Below, piece by piece: positions 2,948 through 32,288 of a stretch of 64,000 bases of DNA (position 1 is the stretch's first letter; every line of letters starts with the position of its first letter). The notes under the pieces were generated by a model. It saw nothing but the letters and a program-made list of their open reading frames with translations. It had not been told where the DNA came from and ran no database searches. The DNA lies in contig OZ024740.1 in NCBI GenBank assembly GCA_964016885.1, positions 15,500,001 to 15,564,000 on the forward strand, in the 5' to 3' direction. The DNA comes from Eledone cirrhosa. Its lineage: Eukaryota. A program made the translations under genes and the position numbers.

Positions 2948-3006
2948 TATATTCGTATACATATTCTCAACTAATACTATACTATATATTTTCAACAGTA
3001 ATACTA

Positions 3007-3364
3007 TCTATACTAATAAAGCTTATGGCCATATGTATATAACAAACTTTTCGCCAAACGGCTGAATCAAACGGCACCAAATTTGCACCATAGATGTAAC
3101 TTTTTCCATGTAAGAAAGTGAGGGTATTTTTGTCAACTAAATTTTGTTTAAAGATTAAAGATATTATCTAAATATTCACCTCTTTAAAATTTTCAAATGT
3201 CAACACTTCCGGGTATACGACATTCCTCTCTCTTTCTTAGTCTGTCTTTTTAGATAGATACATAGCTATAACGTCGCGCCCTTAAAATATGTCTCTATAT
3301 GTCTGGCTGTCTGCATTATGAAAACCGTCTGTGTATATATGTATATATAGTGTGTGTATATATA

Positions 3365-4374: not shown

Positions 4375-7057
4375 GCTCTTTAAGTCTCAGTCATTGATGT
4401 TATTTAACTGGAAAGTTTGTTGAAATGAATATCTAGCCGCTACCTCATATTCAGGACGTATCGGAGGGTTCTTGCTGTTCCCAGCAAGCATGCCTTTTGA
4501 AGTGTTCCAAAAAGCGGGGCTGGACTAATTTTCTTTAACCATCCTTGGAAACTCTTTGAGATAGTACTTAGTGCGCCTATGACAATCGGGCTGACTCTGA
4601 CTTCATGGCAGTTCCAAATGCTTTTTACCTCCCACTTTAAGTTCTGGTATCGGTTAATTTTCTCCCTCTCCTTTTCTTGAACTCACGTGTCGAATGGGCA
4701 GGCTACATCTACAATCAGGCACGATCTTTTTTCCTTGTCCAAAACCACCAGGTCTATTGTGTTCCAGTTTCTTGTCCGTCTGTATCCTAAAATCCCACAG
4801 CACCTTCACCTGATCGTTTTCTATCACCGACTCTGGCTTATGCTCATACCACTTCTCAGAATGTGGTAAATCGTTTACTTTGCATAGGTGCCAGTGGATC
4901 ACCCTGCCCATCACATCATGTCTCCAGCCCTTATAGTGAGTCTGGGCTAGGTGTTTACACTCGGATACAATGTGAGCCACAGTCTCCTCTCTCTCTCTAC
5001 AGATCCTACACAGTGGGCTAGCCTCCTCCTTGTAAATATGGTGTTTCACCCACTTCGTTTTGAGTGCCTGCTCTTGCGCAGCCATTAGCATTCCTTCTGT
5101 AGCCTTTTTAAGGTCTCCTCTTTTTAACCAGTTCCATGTCTGTGGATCTCTAAATTCAGTTTTCTCAAAGAAAGTACTATGAAGGGATTTTTTATGAAGG
5201 TTGCTCTTTCTCCTTGATGTTATTTACTCATTGGACATCCCCTGGTCTATTGTTCTCATTCAGTACAATTCTGAGCATTGGCTCCCTACTGTCGGTCACG
5301 TATTTGTGCAGGTTGTTTTTCTCCATCTGAACACAGTCCTCTATGCTGATAAGACCTCTTCCACCTTCAGATCTCTTTAAGTAGAGTCTATCGACATCAC
5401 TCCTCTTGTGGAACATGTTGTAGATAGTCAATAGCTTCCTAGTTTTCCTATCCATTTCTTTTTGTTCAGCAACATTCCATTTCAGAATTCCCGCACTGTA
5501 CCTAATAATAGACACAGCTCGGGATTTACTCCACTTATGACATTCCTATTGTTCAGATGTGACTTTAATACGCTCCTTACTCGCCTAATGTACTCAGATC
5601 TTATCAATTCCTTAATTTTTTTGTTCTTGATGTCATCTGCCTCCAGAACACCTAAATATTTGTATCCTTCTTCAGTGTCAATTTCCTTTATCATCTCACC
5701 TGTTGGTACCTGGATTCCGTTGTTTCTGCTCAATTTACCCCTCTTCATCACAAGGACTCCACACTTACTAATACCAAATTGCATACATATATCACTGCTG
5801 AAAATACGGACAGTATCAACAAGTACATCCAACTCCTTCTCACTCTTCCCAAAGAGTTTAAGATCGTCCATGAAGAGGTGGTGGTTGATGGTAAGCTCTC
5901 CTTTTCCCAACTTGTATCCTGCTCTCACTTTTCGCAGTATAATGGTCAGGGGTATCAGGGCAAGGACAAACAACAGAGAGGACATACTATCTCCCTGGAA
6001 GATACCTCTTTTGATCTTCACGCTTCCCAAGGATTCTCCACCCGATGTTAATTCTGTTTCCCAGGACTTCATACTTTTGCTCAACAACTGTCTGATGTTA
6101 TCTGCCACCTTGAAGATCTCTAGGCTTTTGGTTATCCAAGAATGAGGTACCATGTCGAATACATTTTTGTAGTCTATCCATCTCATGGCAAGACCAGTGT
6201 GTCTCCTCTTGCAATTCCTCATTACCATCTTATCAATAAGTAGCTGGTCTTTTGCACCACAGGACTTCTTTCAGCATCTTTTCTGTTCTCCCGTAACAAG
6301 TTGTTTGTGTGGAGGTGATGGTAGATTTCCTCAGATACAATGTTTGTTAACAGTTTCCACATTACGGATAGACACGTGATAGGTCTATAGTTGGTAATAT
6401 CATTACCCTTGATTCGGTATTTCATTACCAGGACTGTGGTACCCTTTGTCAACCACTCTGGTATCTCACCCGACATCAAGCAGTCATTGAACATGGTTGT
6501 CAGTTTCGGGTGGAGGGATGTTATATTTTTAATCCAATACCCCTGCACACCATCTGGGCCTGGTGATTTCCAGTTGGTTAGTTTTCTGGCCTGCCCTTTA
6601 AGAGTTTCAGCTGTGATACTTAAATCAGTTTGTTGGTGTGCCTGTTCACTAATCTCTTTTGTACTGTCTCAATCCACACTGCCTGATCATTATGTTCAAC
6701 ATCCTGCTCCCATATTCCTCTCCAGAATGTCTTAGTCTGTTCCGCCTCAGGGATCAAGTCGTTGCCTCTTTCTTTCCCTTCAAGCTGCCCAAATAACATC
6801 TGGTTGTTGTCAAACATGCGATTCTGTCTATACTGACTGACTCTTCTCTCATACCGCCTAATCTTTGCACTCTTTGCTACAATGCGTTGCTTCAGTTCCT
6901 CTATGATCATATTTAGCTTTTTCCTCCTAGTGTTGTACTTTATTTCCAGTCTATTTTTAGTATCTATGTTTTGTAGTGTCCCATTCAGTAGGGACTCAAG
7001 CTTTCCAATGTCATTTCTCATTTCCCTGATTTAACCATTCAGTCGTTTCTTCCACCA
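4375..7057 (-). mobile_element. R4/Dong-like RLE non-LTR retrotransposon, family A copy 1; 5'-truncated and frameshifted
   Basis: ORF fragments with RT motifs ([30 protein letters not shown]), CCHC finger CRIC..HIVSEC and RHD. Same 3' UTR as the other family A copies. Confidence 0.92.
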
Positions 7058-7087
7058 TCTTTTTAAAGTCATTCGATTTTTCCACCA

Positions 7088-7499
7088 TTTTTTAAAGTCC
7101 TTCAGTATTATATCAGGTCTATTTGCACCTATTTTTCCGTCTGTTTGGATGCTAAAGTTCCACAAAATTGAAATGTGATCTTTTTCAAGTACGGGAGGTG
7201 GTTGATGCTCCAACCAATTCTTTTGATGGGGCAGGTCAAAATGCTTACACATTATCCAATGTATGTATTGTGCAGCTCTGTCATGCCTGTTTAGGTATTC
7301 GGTTGGAGCTATAGGACTGCACATTGAAATTATATGATCAATGGTCTCTGGTTGTTTTTTACATACATGGCATAATGAGTTACATCCATTTTTTATTATG
7401 TTGGCTTGATAGTTTTTTGTTGGCAGACACTTCAGTCCTTCAGTCTCCGATTTAAGTCCAGAGGATGCCAACCACTGATGGGTTAAAGTTTTGTCAACA
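7088..7499 (-). mobile_element. Internal fragment of R4-like family B fused to the 5' end of copy A1
   Basis: Matches 8480-8899 (CHVC..HIISMC, RHD, NRPDIILKD) and lacks the family B 3' end. Confidence 0.88.
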
Positions 7500-7513
7500 T
7501 TATTATTATTATT

Positions 7514-8015
7514 GTTCTTTGAGTCTCAGTCATTGATGTTAGTTAACTGGAAAGTTTGTTGAAATGAATATCAAGCCACTACCTGCAGCCTCAGATATTC
7601 AGGACGTATCGGAGGGTTCTTGCTGTTCCCAGGAAGCATGCCTTTTGAAGCGTTCCAGAAAGTGTGAAGGGGCCAATTTTCTTTAACCATCCCTGGAAAC
7701 TTTTTGAGATAGTACCTAGTGCGCCTATGACAATCGGGACCACTTTGACTTCATGGCAGTTCCAAATCCTTTTTACCTCCCACTTTAAGTCCTGGTATCG
7801 GTTAATTTTCTCCCTCTCCTTCTCTTGCACTCTCGTGTCAAATGGGCAGGCTACATCCACAATCGGGCACGATCTTTTTTCCTTGTCCAAAACCACAAGG
7901 TCAGGTCTATTGTGTTCCAGTTTCTTGTCCGTCTGTATCCAAAAATCCCACAGCACCTTCACCTGATCGTTTTCTATCACCGACGCTGGCTTATGCTCAT
8001 ACCACTTCTCAGAAT
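7514..8015 (-). mobile_element. R4-like family A copy 2, ~500-bp 3' fragment (RLE domain and 3' UTR)
   Basis: NRPDLVVLD..IVDVACP..EKINRYQDL..LRYVLNI*; (ATT)n on both sides. Confidence 0.92.
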
Positions 8016-8198
8016 TATTATTATTATTATTATCATTATTATTATTATTATTACAGTTGCATTTATCTTGCTTTATGTTCATACGAGTTATCACCAAGTC
8101 ACAACCAGTGACCTCAAGAGACAACAAGGTCCACCATGTTCAAGAAAGAACATACATACTCACACATGCATCTTTAGGTGTTTAGACTTGTGATGTAC

Positions 8199-11100
8199 TT
8201 ATATTGACAGAATCTTCCTTAGTATATGGGCAGTTCCTATTAGTACTATCTTTTGTATTTCTCCTATACGCGGGTTTCCTGGGATTTGCGATAAGTAATC
8301 ATTAGACCCCTTAGGTATCATTCCCAGAGCGCCTACAGCCACTGGTATTGTTTTAGTTCTCAACTTTCACATTTTTCCAATTTCTATCTCCAGATCCTTA
8401 TACTTGCTCAATTTTTCAAATGTTTTTATAGATACATTCTTGTCTATTGGAACGGACATATCAATTAGCAGGCATATCCTCTTTTTAAAGTCCTTCAGTA
8501 TTATATCAGGTCTATTTGCATCTATTTTTCGGTCTGTTTGGATGCTAAAGTTCCACAAGATTGAGATGTGATCTTTTTCAAGTATGGGAGGTGGTTGATG
8601 CTCCCACCAATTCTTTTGATGGGGCAGGTCAAAATGCTTACACATTATCCAATGTATGTATTGTGCAGCTCTGTCGTGCCTGTTTAGGTATTCGGTTGGA
8701 GCTATAGGACTGCACATTGAAATTATATGGTCAATGGTCTCTGGTTGTTTTTTACATACACGGCATAATGGGCTGCATCCATTTTTTATTATGTTGGCTT
8801 GGTAATTTTTTGTTGGCAGACACTGATCTTGTGCTGATATCAGTCTCCGATTTCAGTCCAGAGGATGCCAACCACTGATGGGTTAAAGTTTTGTCAACAT
8901 CAGGATTGTTAGCTCGTTCTGGGTATTTTCCATTCAGAGGCTTTTCTTGCCATTTCTTAGCCAGTTTCTGTAGCAGTTCTTTCTTTGCAGTTACTTTTAC
9001 CTGCTTTGCTTTTTCTGTGTTTTCCATTTCAGCAGTAAATGGGACTTCTGAAATTTGTAGTCCATTACTGTATCTTTGTGCATCTTTTGTAATGGAATAT
9101 GATCTTTTGATGCTTTCGTGTTTCAAAACGAGTTTGATCATCCAATCATGTGATTCCCTTAGATATGTAGATAATCCAATTGTTGCAGTTTTCAACACAA
9201 TGTCTAACTGGATTAACCCACGTCCTCCTTCTTTCCTAGGGAGATATATTCTATCTGTATCTGCCTTAGGGTGATGCATTCTGTGCATGGTTAAGAATTT
9301 TCGAATTTTTGTATCGAGCCTACGGATCTCTGTGCTTGACCAGTTGATGACATTGTAACAGTAGGTTACTACTGGTATGGTAAGCGTGTTTATGGCATCG
9401 ATCCTATTCCTTGCATTCAATTCCGCTCTTAAGATTGCTCTTACTCTGCGGTAACATTCCTTCCTTATCCTTTCCCTCATTGTCGAGTGCTTGATTCCGT
9501 CTCCTTCACAAACACCTAGATATTTGTAAGTTTCCTCTTGATCAAGTTCTCTTATCACATTCCCTCGATCAAGATTAATGTCTGAACTTTTCAGCAGCTT
9601 TCCTCTGGTGAACTTTGCTTTGGCGCATTTATCTAGTCCAAACTCCATTTTAATGTCATCACTGAACTGCTCCACAGTGGATAATAGCCCTTGCAATTGT
9701 TCATCATTTTTTGCAAATAGTTTCAGATCATCCATGTAGAACAAGTGATTAATGGTTTTGTCATAGACTTTATATCCATGTTTTGTTTCATTGAGCATTT
9801 TACTTTATGGTATAAGTGCGATGCAGAATAAAAGCGGTGATAAAGACTCACCCTATAAAATTCCACAATTAATATTAACTTCTCCAGCTTCCAGTGATTT
9901 TGTTTCACTATTCAAAAGGAGTGTCGTTTTCCATGTCTTCATACTGAACGATAAAAACCTCCTGACAACGGGAGATATTTTGAAAATCTCTAAACATTTT
10001 TCAATCCAACTGTGTGGCAAACTATCGAATGCTTTTTTATAATCTATCCAAGCAATTGATAGATTTTTTGTGTCTATTATGACAATCTTCCAGTATCATT
10101 TTGTTAACCAAAAGCTGATCCTTACAGCCATATGAGCCTCGTTTACACCCTTTCTGCTCAATGGGAAATAGGTCATTTGTTATCAGGTGGTCATATGTAT
10201 ATTCAGTTAGCACTGATGTTAACATTTTATACATTGTGGTCAAGCAAGTTATCGGTCTGTAATTTTGGGGATTGTTTGTCTCATCATTCTTCGGAAGCAG
10301 GAATGTAATGCCGTTAACTAGCCATGATGGTATCTTTTCTGGCTCCTTAACTATTTCATTGTAAAGTTGGGCAAACAGCTCATGAGACTCTGTGAAGGCA
10401 TTTATACAAAAATTTAGTATTTTGTCTTTTCCTGGGGATTTCCATTTGCTGGTTTTTCTAAGAGCCAAACGCAACTGTTCAACTGTTATATTTTCCCATA
10501 TTTGTTCCTCAAGGTGAGCTGTATCTTTCATTTGTCTGTCTATCCATGGGGCATGTATATTATGAACTTTTTCTTCGGCCCAGATCTTTTCCCAGAATTC
10601 TTGCACTTCCTCCTTGGGTGGTATTGATTTAGCAGTTATTGTTGACTTACCAATTTTTCTGTAGAAGTTTCTTTGGTTGTTTTTGAACATATTATTGTCC
10701 TTATAGAATCTAGATCGTTTTTCAAAGCGCCTTATACGAGCAGCTTTGGCCGACACTTTTTTGCTTGATTATTTCTATCAGCATGTCTATGTCACTTGTT
10801 GATTTTATACTGTACTTTCTTTTCAATTTTCTAAGTTTAGTTTGTTTAACATGTTCACCTACTTTATAGTTTGTTAAAATGTCTATGTCAGATCGGAGAA
10901 GGTTTATTTGGCGATTGATGTTCTCTTGCCAAGTAGATTTCTTGTGGGAATTCCTTTGTTTTTTCATTTTCACTCCACATAAGTGAGTGGTGACTTTAGC
11001 CGATGCATAATAGAGATGATTTAAATCAGTAATGTTTAGTTTGTTTGTGATGATAATGTTTTTGAGAATTATGTTAGTCTTGTGTATTATCTTTTGGTTC

Positions 11101-11840
11101 TGTTTGGAGTTCTGGATCTTAGGGAGGGTGTCTCGTTCCCCCATGTCAGATTCTTTCATTTTCATCCATTCCATCATAATTTCATCCTTCAAGTTGGCAA
11201 GTTCATTCTCATTCATTTCTTTATCATTTACGATCTCATTGTTTTCATTTTGAGTTTCATCTTGAGCATGCACTCCTTCCACTTTTTCGATCCTTTCTTT
11301 AATTTGTTCTGTTGTCAGTGATTCCGCCCCAACCCTGGGATTCGAAGTGTTACAATTTACCTCGTTTTCACTGACACATGTTTCATTTTCCCTTCGCTGA
11401 CTTTGTGCTAATAGCTTGATCTGATCAATTTCTATATCAGTTAGTAACTTTTTTTTTACAATATTTCTTCGTATATTGGCTAGTTTGTTACTGTCAATAT
11501 AGCCTCTGTTTTCGGGATGTTTCTTTTTCCAGTTGATATATGTCTGTTCTGTATTCGATGTATTTGATGGGTAGTACATGGTAGTGTAGAAAGCCTCAAG
11601 GACTTCTTTATTATCTTCCCTTGACCATTTTTCTCTCTTTTTCTTTGGATTTCTTGGTGGTGAGCATGGAGGGCCAACAGTAGGAGTATTCCGGTTATGG
11701 GAGGTCTCCAGCTCCGAAGTGATGGGAAGGTTTGAACCATTAGCTGATTTTTCGACCCCAGTCTGGTTCCTCTCTGAGGGACGCGGCCCTTTTTGACCCG
11801 GGTGACGGCCGATCCGGTATGAGATTTTATCATTCGACAT
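8199..11840 (-). pseudogene. Family B RT-RLE polyprotein, frameshifted
   Basis: Consecutive ORFs 10722-11840, 10037-10756, 9723-9908 region, 8752-9798 and 8367-8717, with KWKSPGKD, NYRPITCL, EQKGC, YMDDLKL, YKYLGV, RHD and RPDII..IDMSVP. Confidence 0.9.
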
Positions 11841-12220
11841 TTACTTTATTTTGTCGCGTTTTATCCTTATCCGCCAAGGGGTAATCATTTCGTGTTACCA
11901 CTTCTAGGACGAGTGTCAACCAAGACTAGAGGGGTCGTCCTTCCCTAGAGACACGGCTATTCCTCGCCGGCCGCCATCCCGGTATTTCTTGGTCACGGGG
12001 TTTTCTTTTTTGTTGTTTTTGTAAATTGTTATTATCATGAGTGGTTCCTTAATGTGAGTATTGCGTGGCTTAAGAATGAAATTATTATTAATAATATAAT
12101 GCTGGGGCTTTTTCTATTGTTGGTGGGGAATGCAGGAGCCAGCAGTGCCATAGTCGTTGACGTTTGGCTGGTGGCCGGGTCACTAAGTCAATCAATTTAT
12201 ATCTTTTGCTAGCCTCTCCC

Positions 12221-12927
12221 TTGTCTAGTGATACCGCCACCTTCCCCTTTCTTAAGTTAACAGAAGGTAATGGGGGAATAGTGGTGATAGCAATGAAGGA
12301 GTGGTGGCGGCGGTGATGGGATAGTGGTAGCAATGATGGATGGAGTGGTGGCGGCGGTGACTATAGCGATGGCGTTGTCGTTACTGAGTTTTGTTGAATA
12401 GACTGTAGTTTTTTTTATCTGTGTATCATTGCGGTTTGTCGCGTATGTTTAATATGTGTTGACATATTTTCTTAATATTGGAATTAAACATTTTGTGAAA
12501 ACTTGAGACAATAATAATAGTAATTATTATTATTATGCTGGGATTGGTGGTGGTGGTGGTGAAATTGCCGTTATCTGGCTGTTGTATTTAGTGTACACAG
12601 AAGGGTGATGGGATAGGTGGTGTATCTACTTTGTGGTGTTGGTGAAATTGCTGTTATTTGGCTGTTCTATATAGTGTAGACAGAGGGGGCTTTTTCTTCC
12701 ATTTATAACCATTTTCTTTTTTGAATATAAAATTTATAATACAAAATTGAATATTTGAGCGATATAACAGGATATTATGGATCCGAATTTTTCTGAGAGT
12801 TGAGTCTGGTGCTTTATGTATCATTTGTACTAAGAATTGTTATATCACAATTGTTTTAAATATGTTAAAAATCAAATTCTTACGGGAGCGATTTCATGAC
12901 CTTCTATCCACCAGGTGCGTCTTCTTC
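12221..12927. repeat. ~700-bp block repeated at ~17193-17890 (shared 5' leader)
   Basis: Colinear from TTGTCTAGTGATACCGCCACC to GTGCGTCTTCTTC in both places, high identity by eye. Confidence 0.9.
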
Positions 12928-12930
12928 TTC

Positions 12931-12971
<41 letters not shown>

Positions 12972-15900
12972 GTTCTTTGAGTCTCAGTCATTGATGTTAG
13001 TTAACTGGAAAGTTTGTTGAAATGAATATCAAGCCACTACCTGCAGCCTCAGATATTCAGGACGTATCGGAGGGTTCTTGCTGTTCCCAGCAAGCATGCC
13101 TTTTGAAGCGTTCCAAAAAGCGTGGCGGGGCCAATTTTCTTTAACCATCCCTGGAAACTTTTTGAGATAGTACCTAGTGCGCCTATGACAATCGGGACCA
13201 CTTTGACTTCATGGCAGTTCCAAATCCTTTTTACCTCCCACTTTAAGTCCTGGTATCGGTTAATTTTCTCCCTCTCCTTCTCTTGCACTCTCGTGTCGAA
13301 TGGACAGGCCACATCCACAACCAGGCACGATCTTTTTTCCTTGTCCAAAACCACCAGGTCAGGTCTATTGTGTTCCAGTTTCTTGTCCGTCTGTATCCTA
13401 AAATCCCATAGCACCTTCACCTGATCGTTTTCTATCACCGACTCTGGCTTATGCTCATACCACTTCTAAGAATGTGGTAAATTGTTTACTTTGCATAGGT
13501 GCCAGTGGATCACCCTGCCCATCACATCATGTCTCCAGCCCTTATAGTGAGTCTGGGCTAGGTGTTTACACTCGGATACAATGTGAGCCACAGTCTCCTC
13601 TCTCTCTCCACAGATCCTGCACAGTGAGCTAGCCTCTTCCTTGTAAATATGATGTTTCAACCACTTCGTTTTGAGGGCCTGCTCCTGCGCAGCCATTAAC
13701 ATTCCTTCTGTAGCCTTTTAAGGTCTCCTCTTTTCAACCAGTTCCATGTCTGTGGATCTCTAAATTCAGTTTTCTCAAAGAAGGTACTATGAAGGGATTT
13801 TTCCTGAAGGCTGCTCTTTCTCCTTGATGTTATTTCCTCCCTGGACATCCCCTGGTCTATTGTCCATCCTTCAGTACAGTTCTGAGCATTGGCTCCTTAC
13901 TATCAGTCACGTATTTTGTAGGTTGTTTTTCTCCATCTGAACACAGTCCTCTATGCTGATAAGACCCCTTCCACCTTCAGATCTCCTTAAGTAGAGTCTA
14001 TCGACATCACTCCTCTTGTGGAACATGTTGTAGATAGTCAATAGCTTCCTAGTCTTCCTATCCATTTCTTTTTGTTCAGCAACATTCCATTTCAGAATTC
14101 CCGCACTGTACCTAATAATAGACACAGCTCGGGAATTTACTGCACTTATGGCATTCCTACTGTTCAGATGCGACTTTAATACGCTCCTTACTCTCCGAAT
14201 GTATTCAGTTCTTATCAATTCCTTCATTTTTTTGTTCTTGATGTCATCTGCCTCCAGAACACCCAAATACTTGTATCCTTCTTCAGAGTCAATTTCCTTT
14301 ATCATCTCACCTGTTGGTACCTGGATTCCGTTGTTTCTGTTCAATTTAACCCTCCCCATCACAATGACTCCACACTTACTAATACCAAATTGCATACATA
14401 TATCATACGGACAGTGTCAACAAGCACATCCAACTCCTTCTCACTCTTCCCGAAGAGCTTAAGATCGTCCATGAAGAGGAGGTGCTTGATGGTAAGCCCT
14501 CCCTTTCCCAACTTGTATCCTGCTCTCACTTTTCGCAGTATAATGGTCAGGGGTATCAGGGCAAGGACAAACAACAGAGGGGACATACTATCTCCCTGGA
14601 AGATACCTCTTTTGATCTTCACGCTTCCCAAGGATTCTCCACCCGATGTTAATTCTGTTTCCCAGGACTTCATACTTTTGCTCAACAACTGTCTGATGTT
14701 ATCTGCCACCTTGAAGATCTCCAGGCTTTTGGTGATCCAAGAAAGAGGCACCATGTCAAATGCCTTTTTGTAGTCTATCCATCCCATGGCAAGACCAGTG
14801 TGTCTCCTCTTGCAATTCCTCATTACCATCTTATCAATAAGTAACTGGTCCTTTGTACCACGTGACTTCTTTCGGCATCCTTTCTGTTCGTCCGGTAACA
14901 AGTTGTTTGTGTGGAGGTGATGGTAGATTTCCTCAGACATAATGCTTGTCAACAGTTTCCACATTACGGACAGACATGTGATAGGTCTATAGTTGGTAAC
15001 ATCATTACCCTTGATTCGGTCTTTCATTATCAGAACTGTGGTACCTTTTGTCAACCACTCTGGTACCTCACCTGACATCAAGCAGTCATTGAACATGGTT
15101 GTCAGTTTCGGGTGGAGGGATGTTATATTTTTAATCCAATACGCCCTGCACACCATCTGGGCCTGGTGATTCCCAGTTGGTTAGTTTTTTGGCCTGTCCC
15201 TTAAGAGTTTCAACTGTGATACTCAAATCAGTTTGTTGGTGTGCCTGTTCACTAATCTCCTTCTGTACTGTCTCAATCCACACTGCCTGGTCATTATGTT
15301 TAACATCCTGATCCCATATTCCTCTCCAGAATATTTTAGTTTGTTCCGCCTCAGGGATCAAGTCGTTGCCTTTTTCTTTCCCTTCAAGCTGTCCAAACAG
15401 CATCTTCTGGTTGTTGTCGAACATGCGGTTCTGTCTATACTGACTGACTCTGTTCTCGTATCGCCTGATCTTTGCACTATTTGCTACAATGCGTTGCTTC
15501 AGTTCCTCTATGATAATATTTAGCTTTTTCCTCCTAGTTTTGTACTTTATTTCCAGTCTATTTTTAGTGTCTATGTTTTTTAGTGTCCCATTCAGTAGGG
15601 ACTCAAACTTTCCAATGTCATTTCTCATTTTCCTGATTTGACCACTCAGTCGTTTCTTCCACCAAGGCTCTGATCTTTCTTGTCTGTTGTTTCCTCTCGC
15701 TTTTATACCAAGTAGTTTCCTCACCGTATTTGCTGTTGCTTTGAGGATATTGTTGCACTGGTGACGGCTCCTCGCCTCAAGGTATGGGATGACTTTGTTT
15801 ACCTTAGCTGTTGTTTCTTTTAACTTTTTCCTGTCTACAAATCTTAGGTTCATAGGTTTCCCACTATCATTGTTCAATTCATCTACCACTAAATTTAGGA

Positions 15901-17891
15901 TATCAACCAAATATTGTCCTAGCCCGTCAGCATTCATCTCCTCAGTGGCCGTATCTCTGTTCCAGGTATTATTTATCTCAGCATTCAGATCATTGTCTGC
16001 TTCGGGTGGTTCCTCCGTTCTCTCGACCTCATCACCTTCATTTCCCACTGGCTCGTTTGCCTGGCATACTCCACTCTCCATCTCCAAGCTAATCTCTCTG
16101 CTCAGTTCCTCCAGTTCCAGCTCTCTTATCCACCCATTAGTTCCTATTATCCGAGCCTGCCCGGCCAATTTTTGTTCATCTAATTTAAATAGACCAACCT
16201 CGTTCTAGATGTTATGCATCCGTTTCCTATAGCCTTTCTCGTTGGGGTTACTCTTCGGGTAACATTGCATAACAGTTCTATTTAATTCTTTCGTCCAGTT
16301 GGTTCTGGTCCCTTTCCTTCTTCTTCTTCCTCCGACACCAGCAGTATTTGGTTGACAGCCAGGTCCCTGCTGCTGAGCCAGGGAGCACCTGTTGGGTGAG
16401 AGTCTGTCACATGACATTCTAGTCTCCATTTCACCGTTATTCGAACTGTTTAGGTTCGACATTTAAACACTCTTATCGAGGATTGGCGAATGTATGGTTA
16501 CATAACCACCGGTGATTTCGTCACTCCCGGTGATTTTTGTGTGGCATTATCACGCTGTAGACGAACATAAATAAACAAACAAACAAACAGGCAAAAAAAA
16601 ACCCAAAAATGAATAAGCATAAGTTTCATTGTAATGTAATGTTTGAATGTCTGACTTAGTTTTTCCCTTCCCTTCTCTGTCCGTCTGTTTGTTTTTCTCT
16701 TCATTTTTCTTTTCTTTACGTTTTTCGTTGTTGCTGTGCTGCTTTGATTTTGATTTTTGTTTTTTTGATTTTGACCGGGTCATCAATTCAGTCTATTTAT
16801 ATATTTTGATGCCTTCCTCTTTTAGTGGGGACACTACGATGTAGCAGGGGGTAGCGGGAGAGAATAGCCGCGGTAGTGATAATGAGGCAGTGGTGGTGGT
16901 GGTGGTGGTGGTGGTGGCGGTGCTGTGCTAGCAGCACCTAGCAGGAGGTAGTGGGAGAGAATAGCGGCGGTAGCGATAATGAGGCAGTGGTGGTGGTGAT
17001 GTGATCGTAGTACTGTAGTGATGGTGTTGAAGTTGGAGTAGACTTGACCAGAGTTTTCATCGTGGTAGTGGTGGTGGTGTTGGTGGTGAAACTATCTTTA
17101 GCTATTTAGCTATTTAGTCATTTTGCCATTTTTCTCCTTTTCGACTCTAACATTCCTGATCCAAAATTAAATATTAATCTTGTTTATTGATATTGTCTAG
17201 TGATACCGCCACCTTCCCCTTTCGTAAGTTAACAGAAGGTAATGGGGGAATAGCGGTGGTAGCAATGAAGGAGTGGTGGCGGCGGTGATGGGATAGTGGT
17301 AGTAATGATGGATGGGTGGTGGCGGCGGTGACTGTAGTGATGGCGTTGTCGTTACTGAGTTTTGTTGAATAGACTGTATTTTTGTTTGATCGGTGAATCT
17401 ATGGGGTTAGTCGCGTATATGTGTTGACATATTTTCTTAATATTGGAATTAAACATTTTGTGAAGACTTGAGACAATAATAATAGTAATTATTATTATTA
17501 TGCTGGGATTGGTGGTGGTGGTGGTGAAATTGCCGTTATCTGGCTGTTGTATTTAGTGTACACAGAGGAGTGATGGGGTAGGTGGTGTATCTAGTTTGTG
17601 GTGTTGGTGAAATTACTGTTATTTGGCTGTTCTATATAGTGTAGACAGAGGGCGTTTTCTTCCATTTATAACCATCTTCTTTTTTGAATGTAAAATGTTT
17701 ATTACAAAATTGAATATTTGAGCGATATAACAATATATTATGGATCCGAATCTTCCTGAGGCTTGAGTCTGGTGCTTTGTGCATCATTTGTACTAAGAAT
17801 TGTTATTTCACAATTGATTTAAATATGTTAAAAATCAAAAACTTACGGGAGCGATTTCATGACCTTCTTTCCACCATGTGCGTCTTCTTCC

Positions 17892-17892
<1 letters not shown>
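12972..17892 (-). mobile_element. R4/Dong-like family A copy 3, apparently full length
   Basis: 3' UTR, disrupted ORF 16462-13049 and ~1.4-kb 5' leader, bounded by (ATT)n at 12931-12971 and 17893-17937. Confidence 0.88.
13049..16462 (-). pseudogene. Family A RT-RLE polyprotein, disrupted
   Basis: ORF pieces 16205-16462, 15131-16168, 14359-15156 (IDYKKAFD, QGDSMSP, FMDD), 13907-14395, 13466-13702 (CCHC) and 13049-13438 (PD-(D/E) nuclease). Confidence 0.92.
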
Positions 17893-17937
<45 letters not shown>

Positions 17938-18152
17938 GGTTGGTGAAGCCACGCTTCTTATCGCCTCCAGTCTTTTTCAACGTTTTACCTCTTTTTCAAC
18001 CGTTCTAAACCTTTTATTCAAGTTTTAAATTTGATAAAAGTTTAGAAGAAGTGACCCACCTAATACAGGGGTTCACTAGTAAATAATACGGCACCCCTTT
18101 ACGGGGTGTCGTATTCGTATTTGTGTAAAAATATTTTTTGAAAAATTTCAAC

Positions 18153-20254
18153 ATGGATAACACAAAAAAGAGAGAGAGCGCTGTCAGACAACACAGAGAG
18201 AGGGAGACTTTATCAGCATGTTAACAAGACAGCGTTCCAGCGGAGGTAAATATAAACGAAAATATTACAAAGGAAAAAAAGATTGTTACAGATTTAAAAT
18301 TAACAAATATTTCTAACACAAACAACACCAACAATAACACCAACAACATCACCAACAACAACACCCAAAATAACAGCGGTAAAGTCGAGAACGACAATAA
18401 CAAAAATAACAGCGGTAAGGTCGAGAACGACAATAACAAAAATAACAGCAGTAAGGTCGAGAACGACAATAACAATGACAATAACAACAGCCACAACAAC
18501 AATAATAGTAGGAACAGTATCAACAAAAACAACAATAATAACAACAGCCACAATAACAGTAACAGCAGCAACAGTATCAACGAAAACAACACCAACAACT
18601 GTACCAGCTAAAAGAACAACAATGACACCGATACCTGTAATAGCGATCTCAGCACCACCAGTAAGACCAGTAGCGGCAGCAATAGTGGTGCTGCTGAAAA
18701 AGGGACCACTTCTTTTGCAGGTGTCGCCCGAAATATCGAGACAGTGTTAGTCACAGAGGAGGAGATGGCAGTCGCAAGGGCCATGGTGACAAGAAGCGCA
18801 AATAGAGTTTCCCTGAAACCTCCACCCGATTTTTTCAAGGACCAGCAGCTACGAACGGTGACTTACCGCACCGTAAGCAAAATATCACATCGAGTGGAGA
18901 GAGCCACGGAGGCTCAAATCCAAAAGGCCTTGGGGTGCGTCTGGGCACGCAAAACCCACATCACCCGAGGCAGAAAGTACGCCACAGTAGACATACTTTT
19001 CGCCACCCCCCAGGAAGCAAAGTCTCACTCTTTGGAAACCCTAAAGAGTGAGGAGATAATCTTGGTGCCCTCCTACCGCGGGCAGAAAATTGTGAGGGTC
19101 AAAGTGACCCAGGTCCCACCCGACGTGCCCATACCTTGGCTGGCCGCGTCTGTCCTTGCTGGAATTGAGAACAGGGCGACCATGCTGCAAGTAGAAAAAA
19201 TAGGGAGAGAAAAATGGTCAGGTATAGGCATGCAAATGCTTATAGAAACTGACCAGGAATGTATCGAGGCTATCCCGATATCATAGACATCGAGGAAGGA
19301 CTCCAGTTCCCTATAAGTGTAGAAGGAAGACGGCCAAAATGTTATCTCTGTGGGTCGAAAGGTCACCTCAGGGCCTTTTGCCCGCAGAAGACACCGAAGA
19401 GGGCCCTTCTCCTTCCAATACCTGGTCCGCTGCTACCAAGAGCAGGGCAGACAACAAACGCAGAAGCCCCTTCCACGGTGAGTAGGAGGGCAACATTCGT
19501 AGCACCCGTACCAAGGCCACGGATAACTAAAGCAGCATCATCAGTAGCAGCAACACCAATAGCTACATTTGAAATAGCTACACCAGCAACAACATTGCCG
19601 AAGAGGGCTCCACTACCACCACCAACAGCCTTGGAGCACATACCCCTCCCAGACGCCACAAAATCTGACATGGAGTTTGAGGCGGGAGTGACGTGGCAAA
19701 CAGTCTGCCACAAAAAACAAATGAGAAAAAAACCCTTAGATTCACCCTCCAAAAGCGAAGGCATACAAAGAGGGGTAAAGACAGCAAGGAAACTTGCAGC
19801 AACACCACCACCATCACCACCACAAACACCACTGACAACAACAACCACACCATCACCAGCATCACCACAAACACCAACAACGCAAACACAACAAGACACA
19901 CACACCAAACAGCAACAAGAAGAAAACGGCAACAAAATCACCCCTCCCCCAAAAAGGTACACAGCCATAAACATAGCAAAAAAAGAACTCATAAAATATA
20001 TAAAGCAGCACGCAGACATCACAGAAACAAACTACTACACCCCACCAACACCAAGAATTGTCCCGACAAACATAAGCATCATCGAAATCTCAATAGAACA
20101 ATACAAACCTTTAAAACAAAAATTCCCCAACGCAGTTGGAGACTTCAGAGGGACGGTTACCAAGAGGATATACAGTGACATCCTCCTGGAAACACCCATG
20201 ACCAGAGAAAGGGACGGTTCTACTATCCCTTCACCACACGATCAAGGTAAGTGA
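18153..20254 (+). pseudogene. ORF1 (gag-like nucleic-acid-binding protein) with stops and one frameshift
   Basis: ATG 18153 is in frame with ORF 18744 through two TAA stops. Asn-rich N-terminus. Zinc knuckle CYLCGSKGHLRAFC (CX2CX4HX4C) in 19259-20254. Pro/Thr-rich tail. Confidence 0.8.
18369..18475 (+). repeat. 36-bp tandem repeat x3 in ORF1 (NNSGKVENDNNK)
   Basis: TAACAGCGGTAA(A/G)GTCGAGAACGACAATAACAAAAA recurs with period 36. Confidence 0.85.
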
Positions 20255-20286
20255 CCCTTTCTCATTTGCCCCGTTTCTCATCCAAC

Positions 20287-23281
20287 ATGGCTGTACTCAG
20301 AATAGGCAGTATAAATGCACGTGGCCTGGGGTCATCTTGGAAGCAGGGTCACCTGCTCAATGACCTCAGGTCACTAAACATAGATGTGGTGGCCATCAGT
20401 GAAACCAGAATCTCCGAGGCACGGGCCTTCGCACCGATCTTCGGCGGCTACGATGTATACGCATCTCCCAGCCGTCCAGGATCGGGGAGAGGGGTTGCCG
20501 TCCTTTTTTGGAGAGGCTTGGATCTCGCGATACAGGCCATCTTCCTGGACCCAGAAGGTAAGTCGGTGGTACTGGACGTGACCGGCAGCGAAGGCAATGC
20601 TTTCAGGCTAGTAGCCGTCTACGCCCCAACAGGGGCAGGACGGCCAGATTTCTTCAGACGTCTAGAGACCTTTCTTGGAACGTCCCGCTCATTAGTGTTA
20701 GTGTGCGACTGGAACGGTATCTTGGATGCACGCTGGAATCGTGTGGGGCTAGTGGATAGGGGAGGAGGGTGCAAGAGCCTCACCAACCTGCTCAGACGTT
20801 TTGAACTGTCTGACAGGTATCGACTGGATCACCCGAATGTGCCAATGTGGACATGGACAAACCGCACCGGGTCATCCAGATCGTATCTAGATAGGGTAGT
20901 CTGCAGGGAACTAGATAAGGCTAGTATAAGTTGTCTACAATTTAAAATAGTCGACTACACAGACCTCAAATTTGTGATCTGTGAGATCGACATAGACAGA
21001 CTTCATAGACAAGGGCCTGGTTACTGGAAGCTGAACGCGTCTTTCCCGGCGCGCAAAGCCTACAGAGACCGGATTAGCGTATTAGTTAAGCGGGCGTTGA
21101 CGGGAGCGGTCGTCAACAACAGGTGGTGGTTCGCCCTGAAAAGGGCAATTAAAGTAGAGTCGATTAGGTTTAGCAAAGGAGTAGTGATAGAGGAAAATAG
21201 AGTAGAGGGAGAGCTAGTCAGAAAGCTAGAAGAGGCGTTTAGGACAGGCATCGCAACCGACGTGCTTGCGGCGAGATTGGCACTCGACCAATTCTTCAAC
21301 GCAAAACACAAAGGCTGCGTTGTCAGAGCTAGATCGCGTGCTCTGAAACACGAGGGGACAAAAGCCGTCCAATGGGCCCGGGTGGCAGAGGCGCGACGTG
21401 GCAATAAAGCCACAATTCGGTCTTTGTCTGACCAAAACGGGTGCGTGATGCTCGATCCCGAGTGGATGTGTGAAGCTTTTCAGCAGCACTTTGCTGAACT
21501 GTTCGGGAGCGGCGGCGGCCCGGATCGGGACATGGACTTCAGTGCATACCTCGACGGACTGCCTCGGCTCTCGACGACCGCAGCACAGTGTTGCGAAAAG
21601 CCAATAACAGCCGGTGAAATACGGGAAGCGATGGCTAACTGCACAAGATGTAAATCGCCAGGTTTAGATGGTCTGCCCTACGAGCTTTATGCATTTATGC
21701 CAGACTTGTTCGGTACCTTCTGGCAGACGTCTACTGCAACTGGCAGCAGAACAGGAGCATTCCCAGTTTTGTGAGCCGTGGAGCAGTGGAGATGCTGGGA
21801 AAAGACCCGAACAAGGGGGATGTTATTGATAATTTCAGGCCCATAACTCTGCTAAACGCATAGTTCAAGATTTTGGCCAAGGTGTTAGGAACGAGGTTGG
21901 CGCTTGTCGTCAAGGGTCTGGTGGGAGAGGCGCAGACATGCGCCATCCCGGACAGATCCATACACGACAACCTCCACCTCATGCGATACATCATAGAGAG
22001 GGTGGTTAAGGAACCTGGCAAGGGTGGGGCCCTGATCAACTTGGATCAATCCAAAGCATTCGATAGGGTCGACCATCGGTACCCGGCGGCGGTCCTCGAG
22101 GCAGCCGGTTTCGGGCCCGTTTTCAGGGGTTGGATCGCAGCAATGTACAGCGACATCTGCTCAGTTGTGAGGGTGAACGGTCACCTGTCGCAGCCGTTCA
22201 GCATCATGCGCTCAGTCAGCCAGGGTTGTCCCCTCTCGTCCCCCTTGTACGTATTGGCTCTCGAGCCGTTACTGCACAAACTGGGGGCGATGAGGGGCGT
22301 CCCACGCGAACTAGGATGCGGGAAACCCGAGTCGGCTTACGCTGACGACGTCACCGTGGTGGTGTCGAGCACCAGACACGTTCAGATGCTCGGCACCGCT
22401 CTCAAGGAATACTAAACGGTGACAGGAGCAAAGATAAACCAGGAAAAGTCGGTGGGCTTGCAGCTCGGCACCTGGAGAGGCAAGTCCATGCCCTCCGACA
22501 GCGTCGTGGGGCGTTGGACGGACGGACCGGTTAAATTGCTCGGGGTCTGGTTCGGACCGGACCTCCAGATGGAGAAAAACTGGAACGAGGTGACGAGCAG
22601 GGTGGCCTCCCTCAGTATCGGGCACCAGTATCGGTGGAACATCCACCTCGGCGTTCTATAGAGGACTAGTGGAGGGGAAGAGTGACGACGTTCTCGGAGA
22701 GATCCTGGGCGTCGAAGAAGATCAGCTGCTTGCTCTCTTCCGGAGAACTTTCAGCCCGCGGCCTATGGATAACTTCCAAAAATCCCTGGCCAGGCAGTGC
22801 TACCGGAGAGCGCTGCCGGTTCGAGATAAGGTCTACAGACACGGAAGTGCCGTCAGCCGAGCCTGACCGAGATGCGCGCATAGCGACGAAACCGTTGTGC
22901 ACGCACTCGTTCAGTGCCCAAGCATTGCTAACTTGTGGAGCTCTGTCGAACAGTTTCTGTCACGTGTGGGACTGATCCGGTTGTCGACTGAGTCCATTGT
23001 GCAGATGGTCTTGCCGTCTTCCTTTGAGGAGGAAGGGCAGGCGGTTTTCATCTGCCTGGTGGCCATGGCGAAATAGATTGTGTGGTGGACAAGGTTAAAA
23101 GGATTAAAGACAAACCACTTTCCTCTTCGGCGAATCCCTAATTAACTTTTTCAAGTTTCACTTGAAGAGGAAAATCAGGGTGGAGAGGCAAGTGCTGCTT
23201 TCTAGCAAGTTTGTTGAAAGGTGGGTGAATGTAGCGAGAATGGTCCGAGTTAACGGGACCACTCTGAATATACGTCTGTAG
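20287..23281 (+). pseudogene. ORF2 APE endonuclease plus reverse transcriptase, disrupted
   Basis: INARGL, ISETR, VYAP, DWNG, SYLDR, GYWKLN, SPGLDGLP, LDQSKAFDRV, QGCPLS, AYADD, LLGVWF. Remnant finger PRCAHSDETVVHALVQC at ~22865-22920. Confidence 0.92.
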
Positions 23282-23569
23282 TTTGAGAGATGGAAAAATT
23301 GAGAGAGGGCGCTTGCCCTGGTAGTCAGGGTGGCCGTGGTCTTTTGTGTGGTTTTCGCCACGAGTAACCCTCGGAGGTTTCCCCCCCTGTTGGGGAATTT
23401 TTCATTGATTCAATTTTCATTTTATTGTTTATATATATATATATGTTTTGTCTTTTTTCTTTTCTTATATAAATAATAAAAATATTTACACGCACAAAAC
23501 CCACATCGTACCGTCCTGTTCCGGCTGTGATGTTTTTCTTGATGTCAGCCCTTGTGGCCAATAAAGAAA

Positions 23570-23625
<56 letters not shown>

Positions 23626-23644: not shown

Positions 23645-26085
23645 TCCTTGAATCTCAGTCATTGATGTTGGTTAACTGGAAAGTCCGTTGGAATGAATAT
23701 CAAGCCACTACCTGCAGCCTCAGATATTCAGGACGTATCGGAGGGTTCTTGCTGTTCCAAGCAAGCATGCCTTTTGAAGCGTTCCAAAAAGCGTGAAGGG
23801 GCCGATTTTCTTTAACCATCCCTGGAAACTTTTGGAGATAGTCCCCAGTGCGCCTATGACAATCGGGATCACTTTGACTTCATGGCAGTTCCAAATCCTT
23901 TTCACCTCCCACTTTAGGTCCTGGTATCGGTTAATTTTCTCCCTCTCCTTCTCTTGCACTCTCGTGTCGAACGGGCAGGCCACATCCACAATCAGACACG
24001 ATCTTTTTTCTTTGTCCACAACCACCAGGTCAGGTCTATTGTGTTCCAGTTTTTTGTCCGTCTGTATCCTAAAATCCCACAGCACCTTCACCTGATTGTT
24101 CTCCATCACCGCCTCCGGCCTATGCTCATACCATTTCTCAGAATGTGGTAAATTGTTTACTTTGCACAGGTGCCAGTGGATCACCCTGCCCATCACATCG
24201 TGTCTCCAGCCCTTATAGTGGGTCTGGGCTAGGTGTTTACACTCGGACACAATGTGAGCCACAGTCTCCTCTCTCTCTCCACAGATCCTGCACAGTGGGC
24301 TAGCCTCCTCCTTGTAAATATGGTGCTTCAACCACTTCGTTTTGAGGGCCTGCTCCTGCGCAGCCATTATCATTCCTTCTGTAGCCTTTTTGAGGTCTTC
24401 TCTTCTCAACCAGTTCCATGTCTGTGGATCTCTAAATTCAGTTTTCTCAAAGAAGGTACTATGAAGGGATTTTCCCTTAAGGCTGCTCTTCCTCCTTGAT
24501 GTTATTTCCTCCTTGGACATCCCCTGGCCTACTGTCCCCTCCTTCAGTACAGTTTTGAGCATTGGCTCCTTACTATAGGTCACGTATTTGTATAGGTTGT
24601 TTTTCTCCATCTGAACACAGTCCTCTATGCTGATAAGACCTCTTCCACCCTCAGATCTCCTTAGGTAGAGTCTATCGACATCACTCCTCTTGTGGAACAT
24701 GTTGTAGATAGTCAATAGCTTCCTAGTCTTCCTATCCATTTCTTTTTGTTCAGCAACATTCCATCTCAGAATTCCCGCACTGTACCTAATAATAGACACA
24801 GCTCGGGAATTTACTGCGCTTATGGCATTTCTGCTGTTCAGATGTGACTTCAATACGCTCCTTACTCTCCGAATGTATTCAGTTCTTAACAATTCCTTCA
24901 TTTTTTTGTTCTTTATGCCATCAGCCTCCAGAACGCCCAAATACTTGTATCCTTCCTCAGAGTCAATTTCCTTTATCATCTCACCTGTTGGTATCTGGAT
25001 CCCGCTACTTCTGCTCAACCTACCCCTCCTCATCACAATGACTCCACATTTACCAATACCAAACTGCATACATATATCACTGCTGAAAATACGGACAGTG
25101 TCAACAAGCACATCCAACTCCTTCTCACTTTTCCCGAAGAGCTTAAGATCGTCCATGAAGAGGAGGTGATTGATGGTAAGCTCTCCCCTTCCCAACTTGT
25201 ATCCTGCTCTCACTTTTCGCAGCATAATGGTCAAGGGCATTAGGGCAAGGACAAACAACAGAGGGGACAGGCTATCTTCCTGGAAGATACCTCTCTTGAT
25301 CTTCACGCTTCCCAAGGATACTCCAGTTGATGTCAACTCTGTCTCCCAGGACCCCATACTCCTGCCCAGCAACTGTCTGATGTTATCTGCCACCCTGAAG
25401 ATCTCCAGGCTTTTGGTGATCCAAGAATGAGGCACCATGTCAAATGCCTTTCTGTAGTCTATCCATCCCATGGCAAGATCAGTGTGTCTCCTCCTGCAAT
25501 TCCCCATTACCATCTTATCAATAAGTAACTGGTCCTTTGTACCACGTGACTTCTTTCGGCATCCTTTCTGTTCGTCCGGTAACAAGTTGTTTGTGTGGAG
25601 GTGATGGTAGATTTCCTCAGACACAATGCTCGTCAACAGTTTCCACATTACGGACAGACATGTGATAGGTCTATAGTTGGTAACATCATTACCCTTGATT
25701 CGGTCTTTCATTATCAGAACTGTGGTACCCTTTGTCAACCACTCTGGCACCTCACCCGACACCAAGCAGTCATTGAACATGGCCGTCAGCTTCGGGTGGA
25801 GGGATGTTAAATGTTTAATCCAATACCCCTGCACACCATCTGGGCCTGGTGATTTCCAGTTGGTTAGTTTTTTGGCCTGCCCCTTAAGAGTTTCAACTGT
25901 GATACTCAAATCAGTTTGTTGTTGTGCCTGCTCACCGATCTCCCTCTGTACTGTCTCAATCCACCCTGCCTGGGCATTATGTCTAACATCCTGCTCCCAT
26001 ATTCCTCTCCAGAATGTTTTAGTTTGTTCCGCCCCAGGGATCAAGTCGTTGCCTCTTTCTTTCCCCTCAAGCTGTCCAAACAGCA

Positions 26086-26086
<1 letters not shown>
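23645..26086 (-). mobile_element. R4-like family A copy 4, 5'-truncated
   Basis: Family A 3' UTR; truncated in mid-ORF; (ATT)n on both sides. Confidence 0.93.
23720..26086 (-). CDS. Uninterrupted 788-aa RT + CCHC + RLE reading frame (N-terminus missing; QGD motif changed to QED)
   Basis: Single ORF with all RT motifs (FMDD), CRICGEREETVAHIVSEC, RHD and RPDLVVVD..IVDVACP. Probably not functional. Confidence 0.85.
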
Positions 26087-26717: not shown

Positions 26718-27595
26718 ATATTTTCAACAGAAATACTGTACTATATATTTTCAACAGTAGTACTGTACTATATATTTTCAACATTAATACTATACTATAC
26801 TATATATTTTCAACAGTAATACTGTACTGTACTATATATTTTCAACAGTTATACTATACTATATATTTTCAACAGTAATACTATACATTTTCAACAGTTA
26901 TACTATACTATATATTTTCAACAGTAATACTATACTATATATTTTCAACAGTAATACTGTACTATACTATATATTTTCAACAGTAATACTGTACTATATA
27001 TTTTCAACAGTAATACTATACTATATATTTTCAACAGTAATACTATACTATATATTTTCAACAGTAATACTATACTATATATTTTCAACAGTAATTCTGT
27101 ACTATACTATATATTTTCAACAGTAATACTGTACTATATATTTTCAACAGTTATACTATACTATATATTTCCAACAGTAATACTATACTATATATTTTCA
27201 ACAGTAATACTGTACTATATATTTTCAACAGTAATACTATACTATATATTCTCAACAGTAATACTATACTATATATTTCCAACAGAAATACTATACTATA
27301 CATTTTCAACAGTTATACTATACTATATATTTTCAACAGTAATACTGTACTCTATATTTCCAACAGTAATACTGTACTATATATTTCCAACAGTAATACT
27401 ATACTATATATTTTCAACAGTAATACTGTACTATATATTTTCAACAGTAATACTATACTATATATTTCCAACAGAAATACTATACTATACATTTTCAACA
27501 GTTATACTATACTATATATTTTCAACAGTAATACTGTACTCTATATTTCCAACAGTAATACTGTACTATATATTTTCAACAGTAATACTGTACTA
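26718..27595. repeat. 27/32-bp minisatellite (TATATATTTTCAACAGTAATACTRTAC with an optional pentamer), ~30 copies
   Basis: Period 27 measured from 27005 to 27032; longer units carry an extra TATAC. Confidence 0.93.
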
Positions 27596-31600: not shown

Positions 31601-31806
31601 GGACCCGCGCAGTTGCCAAGTGGTTCCCGCTCGAGCGGAAACGACCACTCGGAAGGCCTCCACGAAGGTGGAGTTACGATTTTAAGAATACGATTGGGAC
31701 TACATGGATGAGGAAAGCACGATCCAGAGAGGAATGGACGGCGTGCTGTTACCAGGGGCGCTGAATGGACGCCCGACAGACTGGTCGGTCAAGGTGATCA
31801 AGGTGA
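28690..31806 (+). mobile_element. RTE-clade non-LTR retrotransposon, near full length, frameshifted
   Basis: Single APE-RT frame in pieces: CTFNCRSL, LGLCET, TYAPTS, MGDFNAKVG, GSDHRLV, KAPGKDG, NYRPICLL, EQAGFR, QGDTISP, RFTDDIVL, YVYLGQ, WAGHVAR, RPLGRPPRRW. Tail (TCAAGGTGA)2 then (TA)n. Confidence 0.93.
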
Positions 31807-32210: not shown

Positions 32211-32212
<2 letters not shown>

Positions 32213-32288
32213 AGGAACCAGTAAGACCCCGACAGCTGAGCTCAAGCCTTGGCTTGAGCTCAGCTGTCGGGGTCTTACTGGTTCCTAT
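32211..32288. repeat. Perfect 38-bp inverted repeat with a 2-nt spacer
   Basis: ATAGGAACCAGTAAGACCCCGACAGCTGAGCTCAAGCC-tt-reverse complement, directly after (TA)n. Confidence 0.95.

Follow-up and report, generated by a model that had tools for sequence, protein, structure and literature searches.

A 5' leader shared by two divergent R4/Dong-type retrotransposon families of Eledone cirrhosa, likely exchanged between them and likely a promoter

The stretch of Eledone cirrhosa DNA analyzed here (contig OZ024740.1, positions 15,500,001 to 15,564,000; the window, 64,000 nucleotides) contains a nest of minus-strand non-long-terminal-repeat retrotransposons in (TAA)n, from 4375 to 17892. Two families in this nest, A and B, begin with the same block of about 700 nt. 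The explanation that we favor, with moderate confidence, is that the block is a 5' leader common to two (TAA)n-targeting R4/Dong families, likely passed by recombination at least twice and likely acting as an internal promoter. Coordinates of the features are collected in Table 1.

The two copies of the block (17890-17193 aligned with 12927-12221) are 92.8% identical over 708 columns, with 40 substitutions in 697 aligned bases and 4 gaps, a Kimura two-parameter (K2P) distance of 0.06. A self-comparison of the first 34 kb recovered the pair with its microsatellite included (12221-12972 and 17193-17938, 92.6%). Read on the minus strand, each copy begins right behind a (TAA)n run and occupies the next ~700 nt. 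These runs, which read (ATT)n on the plus strand (12934-12971 and 17893-17937), limit the high identity on one side, and TTGTCTAG is its sharp limit on the other. There is no (TAA)n tail on the 3' side of either copy. Each copy lies 5' of a near-complete, decayed open reading frame (ORF) with a reverse transcriptase (RT), a CCHC motif, and a restriction-like endonuclease (RLE). An earlier note on this DNA had described the similar blocks, their position against (ATT)n in front of apparently full-length elements, and the abrupt end of their similarity, and we confirmed all three. An assembly artifact or a simple recent tandem duplication might be suspected in a repeat-rich region beside a 30-kb satellite. 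However, the copies differ at 40 sites and by 4 gaps, and similarity of that degree does not extend past either end, which makes this scarcely credible.

Two other identities for the block were considered and rejected. It was rejected as the 3' end of a plus-strand element because both copies have the same junction, there is no target duplication, and a paralog lies inside the A untranslated region (UTR). It was rejected as an insertion target because all 3' ends and truncated 5' ends sit in (TAA)n. The exact 23-nt pattern of the block terminus had no match in metagenome, viral, and prokaryote collections, and in 80 related loci the terminus had only one 15-nt match. The block contains (AAT)n and (ATT)n runs that point toward one another (12493-12545 and 17463-17510). 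Their plus-strand side resembles the 3' end of the related locus L007 (37 nt, E = 1e-4, mostly low complexity), and they are possibly a relic of two tails placed head to head.

The elements behind the block are only distantly related. The A and B proteins, read through breaks with X, are 34.8% identical over 1,104 columns. Both have Pfam matches to RVT_1 and zf-RVT, C-x2-C..H..C and PD..D..K motifs are present in the translations, and R2 proteins are the nearest solved structures. No Pfam zinc-finger match was found in the N-terminal ORF pieces of A and B. All five copies with a preserved 3' end finish in (TAA)n, and four of the five have it at their 5' junction; the exception is the A copy at 4375, which is fused to a B fragment. 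Excerpts of PMC7998251 describe R4/Dong elements as having a single ORF with RT and RLE, no N-terminal zinc finger, and a (TAA)n target, with a diverged N-terminal Myb/SANT domain as a clade feature. A and B match the R4 clade, including Dong of Bombyx, in their single RT and RLE ORF, the lack of an N-terminal zinc finger, and the (TAA)n target, and our assignment follows that anatomy and target. Our tree had only unnamed relatives, and none of the 10 clusters that were looked up had a name. That FastTree analysis used 59 of the 80 fetched loci (those covering at least 640 query residues) plus three rows from the window. It grouped A with L001 and L002 (0.97) and B with L031, L033, L053, L058, L059, and L061 (0.99); the midpoint root falls between these two groups.

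A second, older leader copy is present in A. Element B runs from the block through a motif that we call M to the UTR and ORF, whereas A runs from the block through a diverged leader (A-old) to M, UTR, and ORF. A 17188-16763 and B 12534-12163 share 238 of 333 positions (71%), in an alignment that crosses the TTGTCTAG junction of B. A-old plus M aligned with the B leader plus M at a local score of 115.5, which was reached by none of 300 shuffles (mean, 35.6; maximum, 69.5), and most A-old sub-segments were significant alone (0/300 shuffles). A-old has no terminus of its own, and its start is homologous to the block interior. M itself is 57 nt long (A 16819-16763 and B 12219-12163) and 70 to 75% identical (score, 52; 0/1,000 shuffles; E = 5e-6). 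These results modify the claim of the earlier note that the ORFs, proximal 5' UTRs, and 3' UTRs of A and B cannot be aligned by eye as DNA. That claim holds for the UTR between M and the ATG, where 277 of 300 shuffles did as well pairwise. It fails for the proximal UTRs (0/300 shuffles for the 71% alignment), and the ORFs are weakly alignable (57.8% over 890 nt). Similarity layers of about 71% and 93% between such distant families suggest at least two leader transfers between A and B. Judged by its sequence, A has two stacked generations of leader, with the old one kept behind the new. In X1, a sequencing run described below, contigs with a loose end at 16508 have a different sequence upstream of the ATG-proximal motif of A. 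Family A therefore includes a subfamily whose proximal UTR differs.

These layers also bear on whether the leader could descend from a common ancestor and have stayed similar through selection or local gene conversion, without passing from one active lineage to another. Divergent R4 elements do retain short structured UTR domains, and the block copies are 5 kb apart, so conversion is possible. However, 93% identity over 700 nt of unstructured noncoding DNA (folding z = +1.0 and +2.7) cannot outlast a split to 35% protein identity, and conversion requires prior homology and leaves the stacked copy unexplained. Furthermore, M was found in none of the 80 related loci at E < 0.1, and the terminus had its single 15-nt match there. 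We consider common ancestry very unlikely.

Most relatives have a much shorter leader. Among 35 loci with a near-complete N terminus, 14 have a microsatellite run upstream, and the leader is 147 to 293 nt in 12 of these 14 measurable relatives (585 and 914 nt in the other two). The two leaders in the window are 1,090 and 1,430 nt, 4 to 9 times longer than those of most fetched relatives in the Dong/R4 comparison, which makes the long leader an addition. The ATG-proximal domain of the B UTR is common to L001, L002, L003, and L035 (E = 4.3e-10, with a profile that excluded the window). A hand-drawn structure of it is 93% paired with 7 compensatory pairs, although it was drawn from the same sequences and L001 and L002 are one family; RNAalifold on a fragmentary 7-row alignment gave only 8 pairs. 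In L003, this domain begins right at (TAA)n. Therefore, the ancestral 5' end of B was probably near 11985-12100, and the leader may have started out as a separate insert.

The earlier note had offered such an insert as one option, an independent nonautonomous (TAA)n-targeting element. It would consist of the block plus M, to about 12100, and would have landed upstream of R4 elements, with occasional capture by read-through transcription. Relatives have their 5' ends about 150 to 290 nt from the ATG, which would place the ancestral end of B close to the degenerate TAA run at 12080-12100; this run and its flanks (12071-12126) do sit where the short 5' UTRs of relatives would place that end. There are TAA-like relics in the leader, and an X1 junction (below) proves block plus M but not block plus M plus ORF. 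However, neither copy has a clean 3'-side (TAA)n tail, and the 3' end of this putative element is unlike the A or B 3' termini. The short ATT run near 12080 is paralogous to a motif inside the block, and the similarity includes both flanks of the run (0/300 shuffles). In addition, summed block depth is well below ORF depth in all three contig sets, which is a weak measure but not what an abundant free element would show. The missing tail and the paralogy of the 12080 run weaken this option, and we consider it unlikely, though such an element may be the ultimate origin of the leader even under the explanation that we favor.

A second case of incongruent UTRs was found among the relatives. L006 and L024 are 96.3% identical over the whole 271-nt UTR, whereas their ORFs are 61% identical as DNA and 51% as protein, and the UTR identity ends 7 nt into the ORF. 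L024 and its ORF relative L023 are 90% identical in the UTR (ORF, 72% as DNA and 75% as protein); L006 and its ORF relative L007 are 64% identical in the UTR and 69% as protein. Thus, UTR relationships are incongruent with ORF relationships both for A and B (93% leader, 35% protein) and for L006, L023, L024, and L007. From these comparisons, L006 and L024 appear to represent an independent UTR swap between R4 lineages, with L006 possibly mis-assembled.

Other features were observed at the 5' ends of the relatives. tRNA-like heads with A- and B-box-like words were seen by eye in L004 (25-100), L005 (10-90), L065 (1-70), and L071 (107-180), right after (TAA)n in L004 and L071. ARAGORN found no tRNA in 15 loci, including L004 and L005. 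These might possibly be autonomous long interspersed elements (LINEs) with a polymerase III-type 5' end. Separately, a 34- to 45-nt motif in the first 70 nt after (TAA)n is 86 to 100% identical where proteins are 45 to 75% identical (L006, L007, L008, L017, L018, L021 to L024, L026, and L039). By eye, it forms a hairpin with its loop pairing with the 5' end. It has no Rfam match and is a candidate new structured RNA or ribozyme.

We also compared 15000-17890 with four public sequencing runs (X1, X4, X6, and X17; 4 of 19 listed, with 3 species labels) at a matching threshold of 82%. The evidence that follows is from 15 of 57 joints and 24 of 861 loose-end rows. An X1 contig contained the B-type junction of M with the block, through the intervening letters of B and with one difference from B in the window. 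Its depth was 129, versus 6 to 13 for the long X1 pieces listed. A joint of A-type units straight onto block sequence (17029->17251) was present in X1, X4, and four X17 reads. Its shorter side was up to 56 letters, and that 56-mer was identical to either block at 42 to 43 of 56 positions, below the 82% threshold. A variant joint (17026->17268) was found in X4 and X6. A further joint (17285->16951, depth 461) has leader units in the opposite order, so leaders are mosaics. The block terminus followed by (TTA)n was in 5,262 X17 reads and one X4 contig, with loose ends at 17865 and 17868. Five of the six in-block read variants listed had the letter of B, which places both block copies in one pool. 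Taken together, the block is probably not confined to the locus in the window, and sharing at the level of families is likely but not proven.

The runs bear directly on a one-off chimera, in which only B has the block and a single A copy gained it by one template jump or by a deletion between nested B and A neighbors, with no subfamily behind it. The block divergence matches ordinary copy decay, A and B lie head to tail with a further local A/B fusion at 7057-7089, and the exact A junction of the window is not among the run rows listed. Against this, block-to-A-unit joints that are absent from the window are present in X1, X4, and X17. A-old starts in sequence homologous to the block interior with no terminus of its own, and the older transfer of A-old plus M is left unexplained. 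We consider the chimera possible but improbable.

The leader probably contains an internal promoter, as predicted from its sequence features. Compatible with this are its terminal position, a TATA-like word in M of both families, repeated CAC/CCG units, and retention of CpG (observed/expected ratio of 0.81 to 0.84 in the block versus 0.43 to 0.50 in the ORFs). There are also a predicted splice donor and acceptor. Each of these promoter and splice features is weak alone. Folding was no better than for shuffles in the first 150 nt of the block and in the M regions. According to excerpts of PMC3774820, the 5' ends of Dong and R4 are released by self-cleaving hepatitis delta virus (HDV)-like ribozymes; none was detected at the A or B terminus. 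Rfam had no ribozyme at E ≤ 5 and no meaningful match in window positions 4000-34300 or in 16 of the 80 loci. No hammerhead core and no convincing HDV fold were found in the leaders. An HDV-like fold descriptor matched none of 37 leaders within 12 nt of the 5' end, including those of the 35 relatives, so the descriptor has no positive control. An AU-rich match to the descriptor starting 34 nt in was judged to be chance.

Several points weigh against the explanation that we favor. AT-rich DNA yields TATA-like and splice-like words by chance, and CpG ratios are as high in the proximal UTRs (0.89 to 1.09) and in a neighboring L1/Tx1-type element (0.80). CAC-rich low-complexity sequence is part of the A-old similarity, and 1 of 300 shuffles equaled the score of one CAC-rich sub-segment. 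Among the rows listed, no read or contig spans block to ORF, and none explicitly crosses the window junction 17192/17193. The short side is 21 letters in the X4/X6 joint 17026->17268 and 28 in the X1 junction, and sequencing depth, such as the 129 of that contig, is not copy number. L006 comes from one metagenome contig, in which mis-assembly is possible, although only 19 nt are identical across its junction. Relatives with short UTRs generally show more conservation in them than in their ORFs, which makes constraint a partial explanation of the L006/L024 pattern.

Even so, the best reading is an exchangeable, stackable leader moved by template switching or recombination. The earlier note had proposed a leader swapped between RLE lineages; the swap is the best fit to the data, and the promoter role is still inferred. 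An old transfer would have left A-old plus M in A, and a recent one would have added the block, with B or a common donor as the simplest source. Leader divergence (K2P, 0.06) is within the spread of A copies (0.03 to 0.10) and near that of B copies (0.04), which suggests that the last exchange was recent. During target-primed reverse transcription, RT may jump from the 5' end of A RNA to a leader RNA belonging to the other family. Alternatively, neighbors might recombine within (TAA)n nests, in which A and B are arranged head to tail. The A/B join at 7057-7089 has the same orientation on both sides, no (TAA)n, and a 30-nt duplication. We infer that an RT jump from A RNA to B RNA would produce such a join, but a deletion between nested neighbors would leave the same picture. 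Because copies land in scattered microsatellites, they cannot depend on rRNA cotranscription, and transcription would start from the leader instead. Translation would then avoid the many upstream ATGs through a predicted intron (17846-16555) or through the ATG-proximal structured domain.

Table 1. Features of the A and B elements in the window
Feature	Position	Strand	Remark
Shared leader block, element A (newer, distal leader)	17193..17892	-	begins straight after (TAA)n
Shared leader block, element B	12221..12933	-	unbroken continuation into motif M
(TAA)n at A 5' end	17893..17937	.	
(TAA)n between A 3' end and B 5' end	12934..12971	.	
A-old, diverged older leader paralog	16820..17192	-	CAC-rich units; internal 63-nt duplication 16842-16904 / 16939-17001
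Motif M in A	16763..16819	-	TATA-like TATAAAT near 16801
Motif M in B	12163..12220	-	TATA-like TATAAAT at 12201; directly after TTGTCTAG junction
Degenerate TAA-like run and flanks	12071..12126	-	paralog of block-internal 12512-12553
Conserved, predicted structured RNA domain in B proximal UTR	11888..12000	-	also present in R4-like elements from other organisms
Weak match in A to ATG-proximal half of conserved UTR domain	16468..16518	-	E = 0.02 over 34 kb; best of 6 matches
Splice-donor-like GTAAG, predicted	17842..17846	-	47 nt from 5' end; in B, 12883
Acceptor-like pyrimidine tract ending TACAG, predicted	16555..16600	-	about 92 nt before A ATG
Family A ORF	13049..16462	-	RT, CCHC zinc finger, PD..D..K endonuclease; interrupted by stops, frameshifts
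Family B ORF	8205..11840	-	domain order as in A; broken
Family A copies	4375-7057, 7514-8015, 12972-17892, 23646-26086		last one outside the nest
Family B copy	8054-12933		plus fragment 7089-7500
Internal B fragment (like 8482-8911)	7039..7500	-	fused to 5' side of truncated A copy 4375-7057

The rest of the window holds other repeats. An L1/Tx1-type element (17938-23572, plus strand) has a CCHC ORF1, an apurinic endonuclease (APE), and an RT-like ORF2. Because it is flanked by (ATT)n at either end, its target may be (TAA)n, as for the R4 elements. A decayed RTE-like LINE with an RT match (about 28700-31800, plus strand) ends before a (TA)n run. A 27-bp tandem array (26718-27595, 32 copies) is beside inverted-repeat DNA resembling miniature inverted-repeat transposable elements, which recurs at 323-639, 946-1110, and 3001-3318. 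There is a near-perfect 78-nt palindrome beside (TA)n (32211-32288) and a 30-kb satellite (34262-63979, about 841 copies of a 34-bp unit).

Exchange of 5' UTRs is known elsewhere, and the comparisons here follow excerpts of the papers cited. Mouse L1 has recruited 5' UTR promoters repeatedly, also from other families, and some of its leaders have tandem units (Sookdeo 2013, PMC3600994). Turnover of 5' UTRs was described in perissodactyl (horse) L1 and termed mammal specific (PMC5872511). Repeated recruitment is likely for the A and B leaders too, and tandem units are also seen in them. However, L1 exchange is between closely related families of one lineage, whereas A and B are RLE elements of a non-L1 clade with 35% protein identity, and A keeps its old leader behind the new. 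SolRTE of Nicotiana has undergone successive 5' UTR exchanges that gave mosaic UTRs, with template switching proposed (bioRxiv 10.1101/2022.11.04.512097), all of which resembles the A and B leaders. In contrast, SolRTE (RTE, APE) has one conserved body with nonhomologous UTRs, and here one leader is on two divergent bodies. An RTE 5'-UTR domain is also in Ceph-SINEs, Ingi-3_AC, and R4-1_ADi (Kojima 2018, PMC5786205), making it a UTR module across LINE clades, including one R4. By eye, B 11888-12000 is like this domain of OegopSINE/Ceph-SINE (SINE, short interspersed element). That domain is short (45 to 90 nt), old, and mid-UTR, whereas the block is 700 nt, terminal, and recently exchanged. 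We found no report of leader sharing between R4/Dong families in the open-access literature (Repbase, Dfam, and subscription papers were outside this scope), and excerpts of octopus papers do not describe Dong 5' ends. What sets A and B apart is the RLE clade, partners as distant as 35% protein identity, a single leader carried by two bodies, and the retention of an older copy.

A wider version can be put forward only tentatively. Microsatellite-targeting R4/Dong elements might swap the ribozyme and cotranscription route for a mobile, stackable promoter-and-intron leader. Such leaders might circulate between families diverged to 35% protein identity and be captured serially, with older copies retained behind newer ones. 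Leader swapping might be habitual in this clade across animals, as L006 and L024 might indicate.

How RLE retrotransposons outside ribosomal DNA are transcribed is poorly known, and a shared terminal leader is a concrete promoter candidate. The order of events can be read from the stacking of the old leader behind the new one. If swapping is true at the level of families, then 5' UTR turnover also occurs between deeply divergent RLE families. Such families would have a regulatory module and a silencing target in common, and 5' ends would be mis-assigned in repeat libraries based on ORF similarity.

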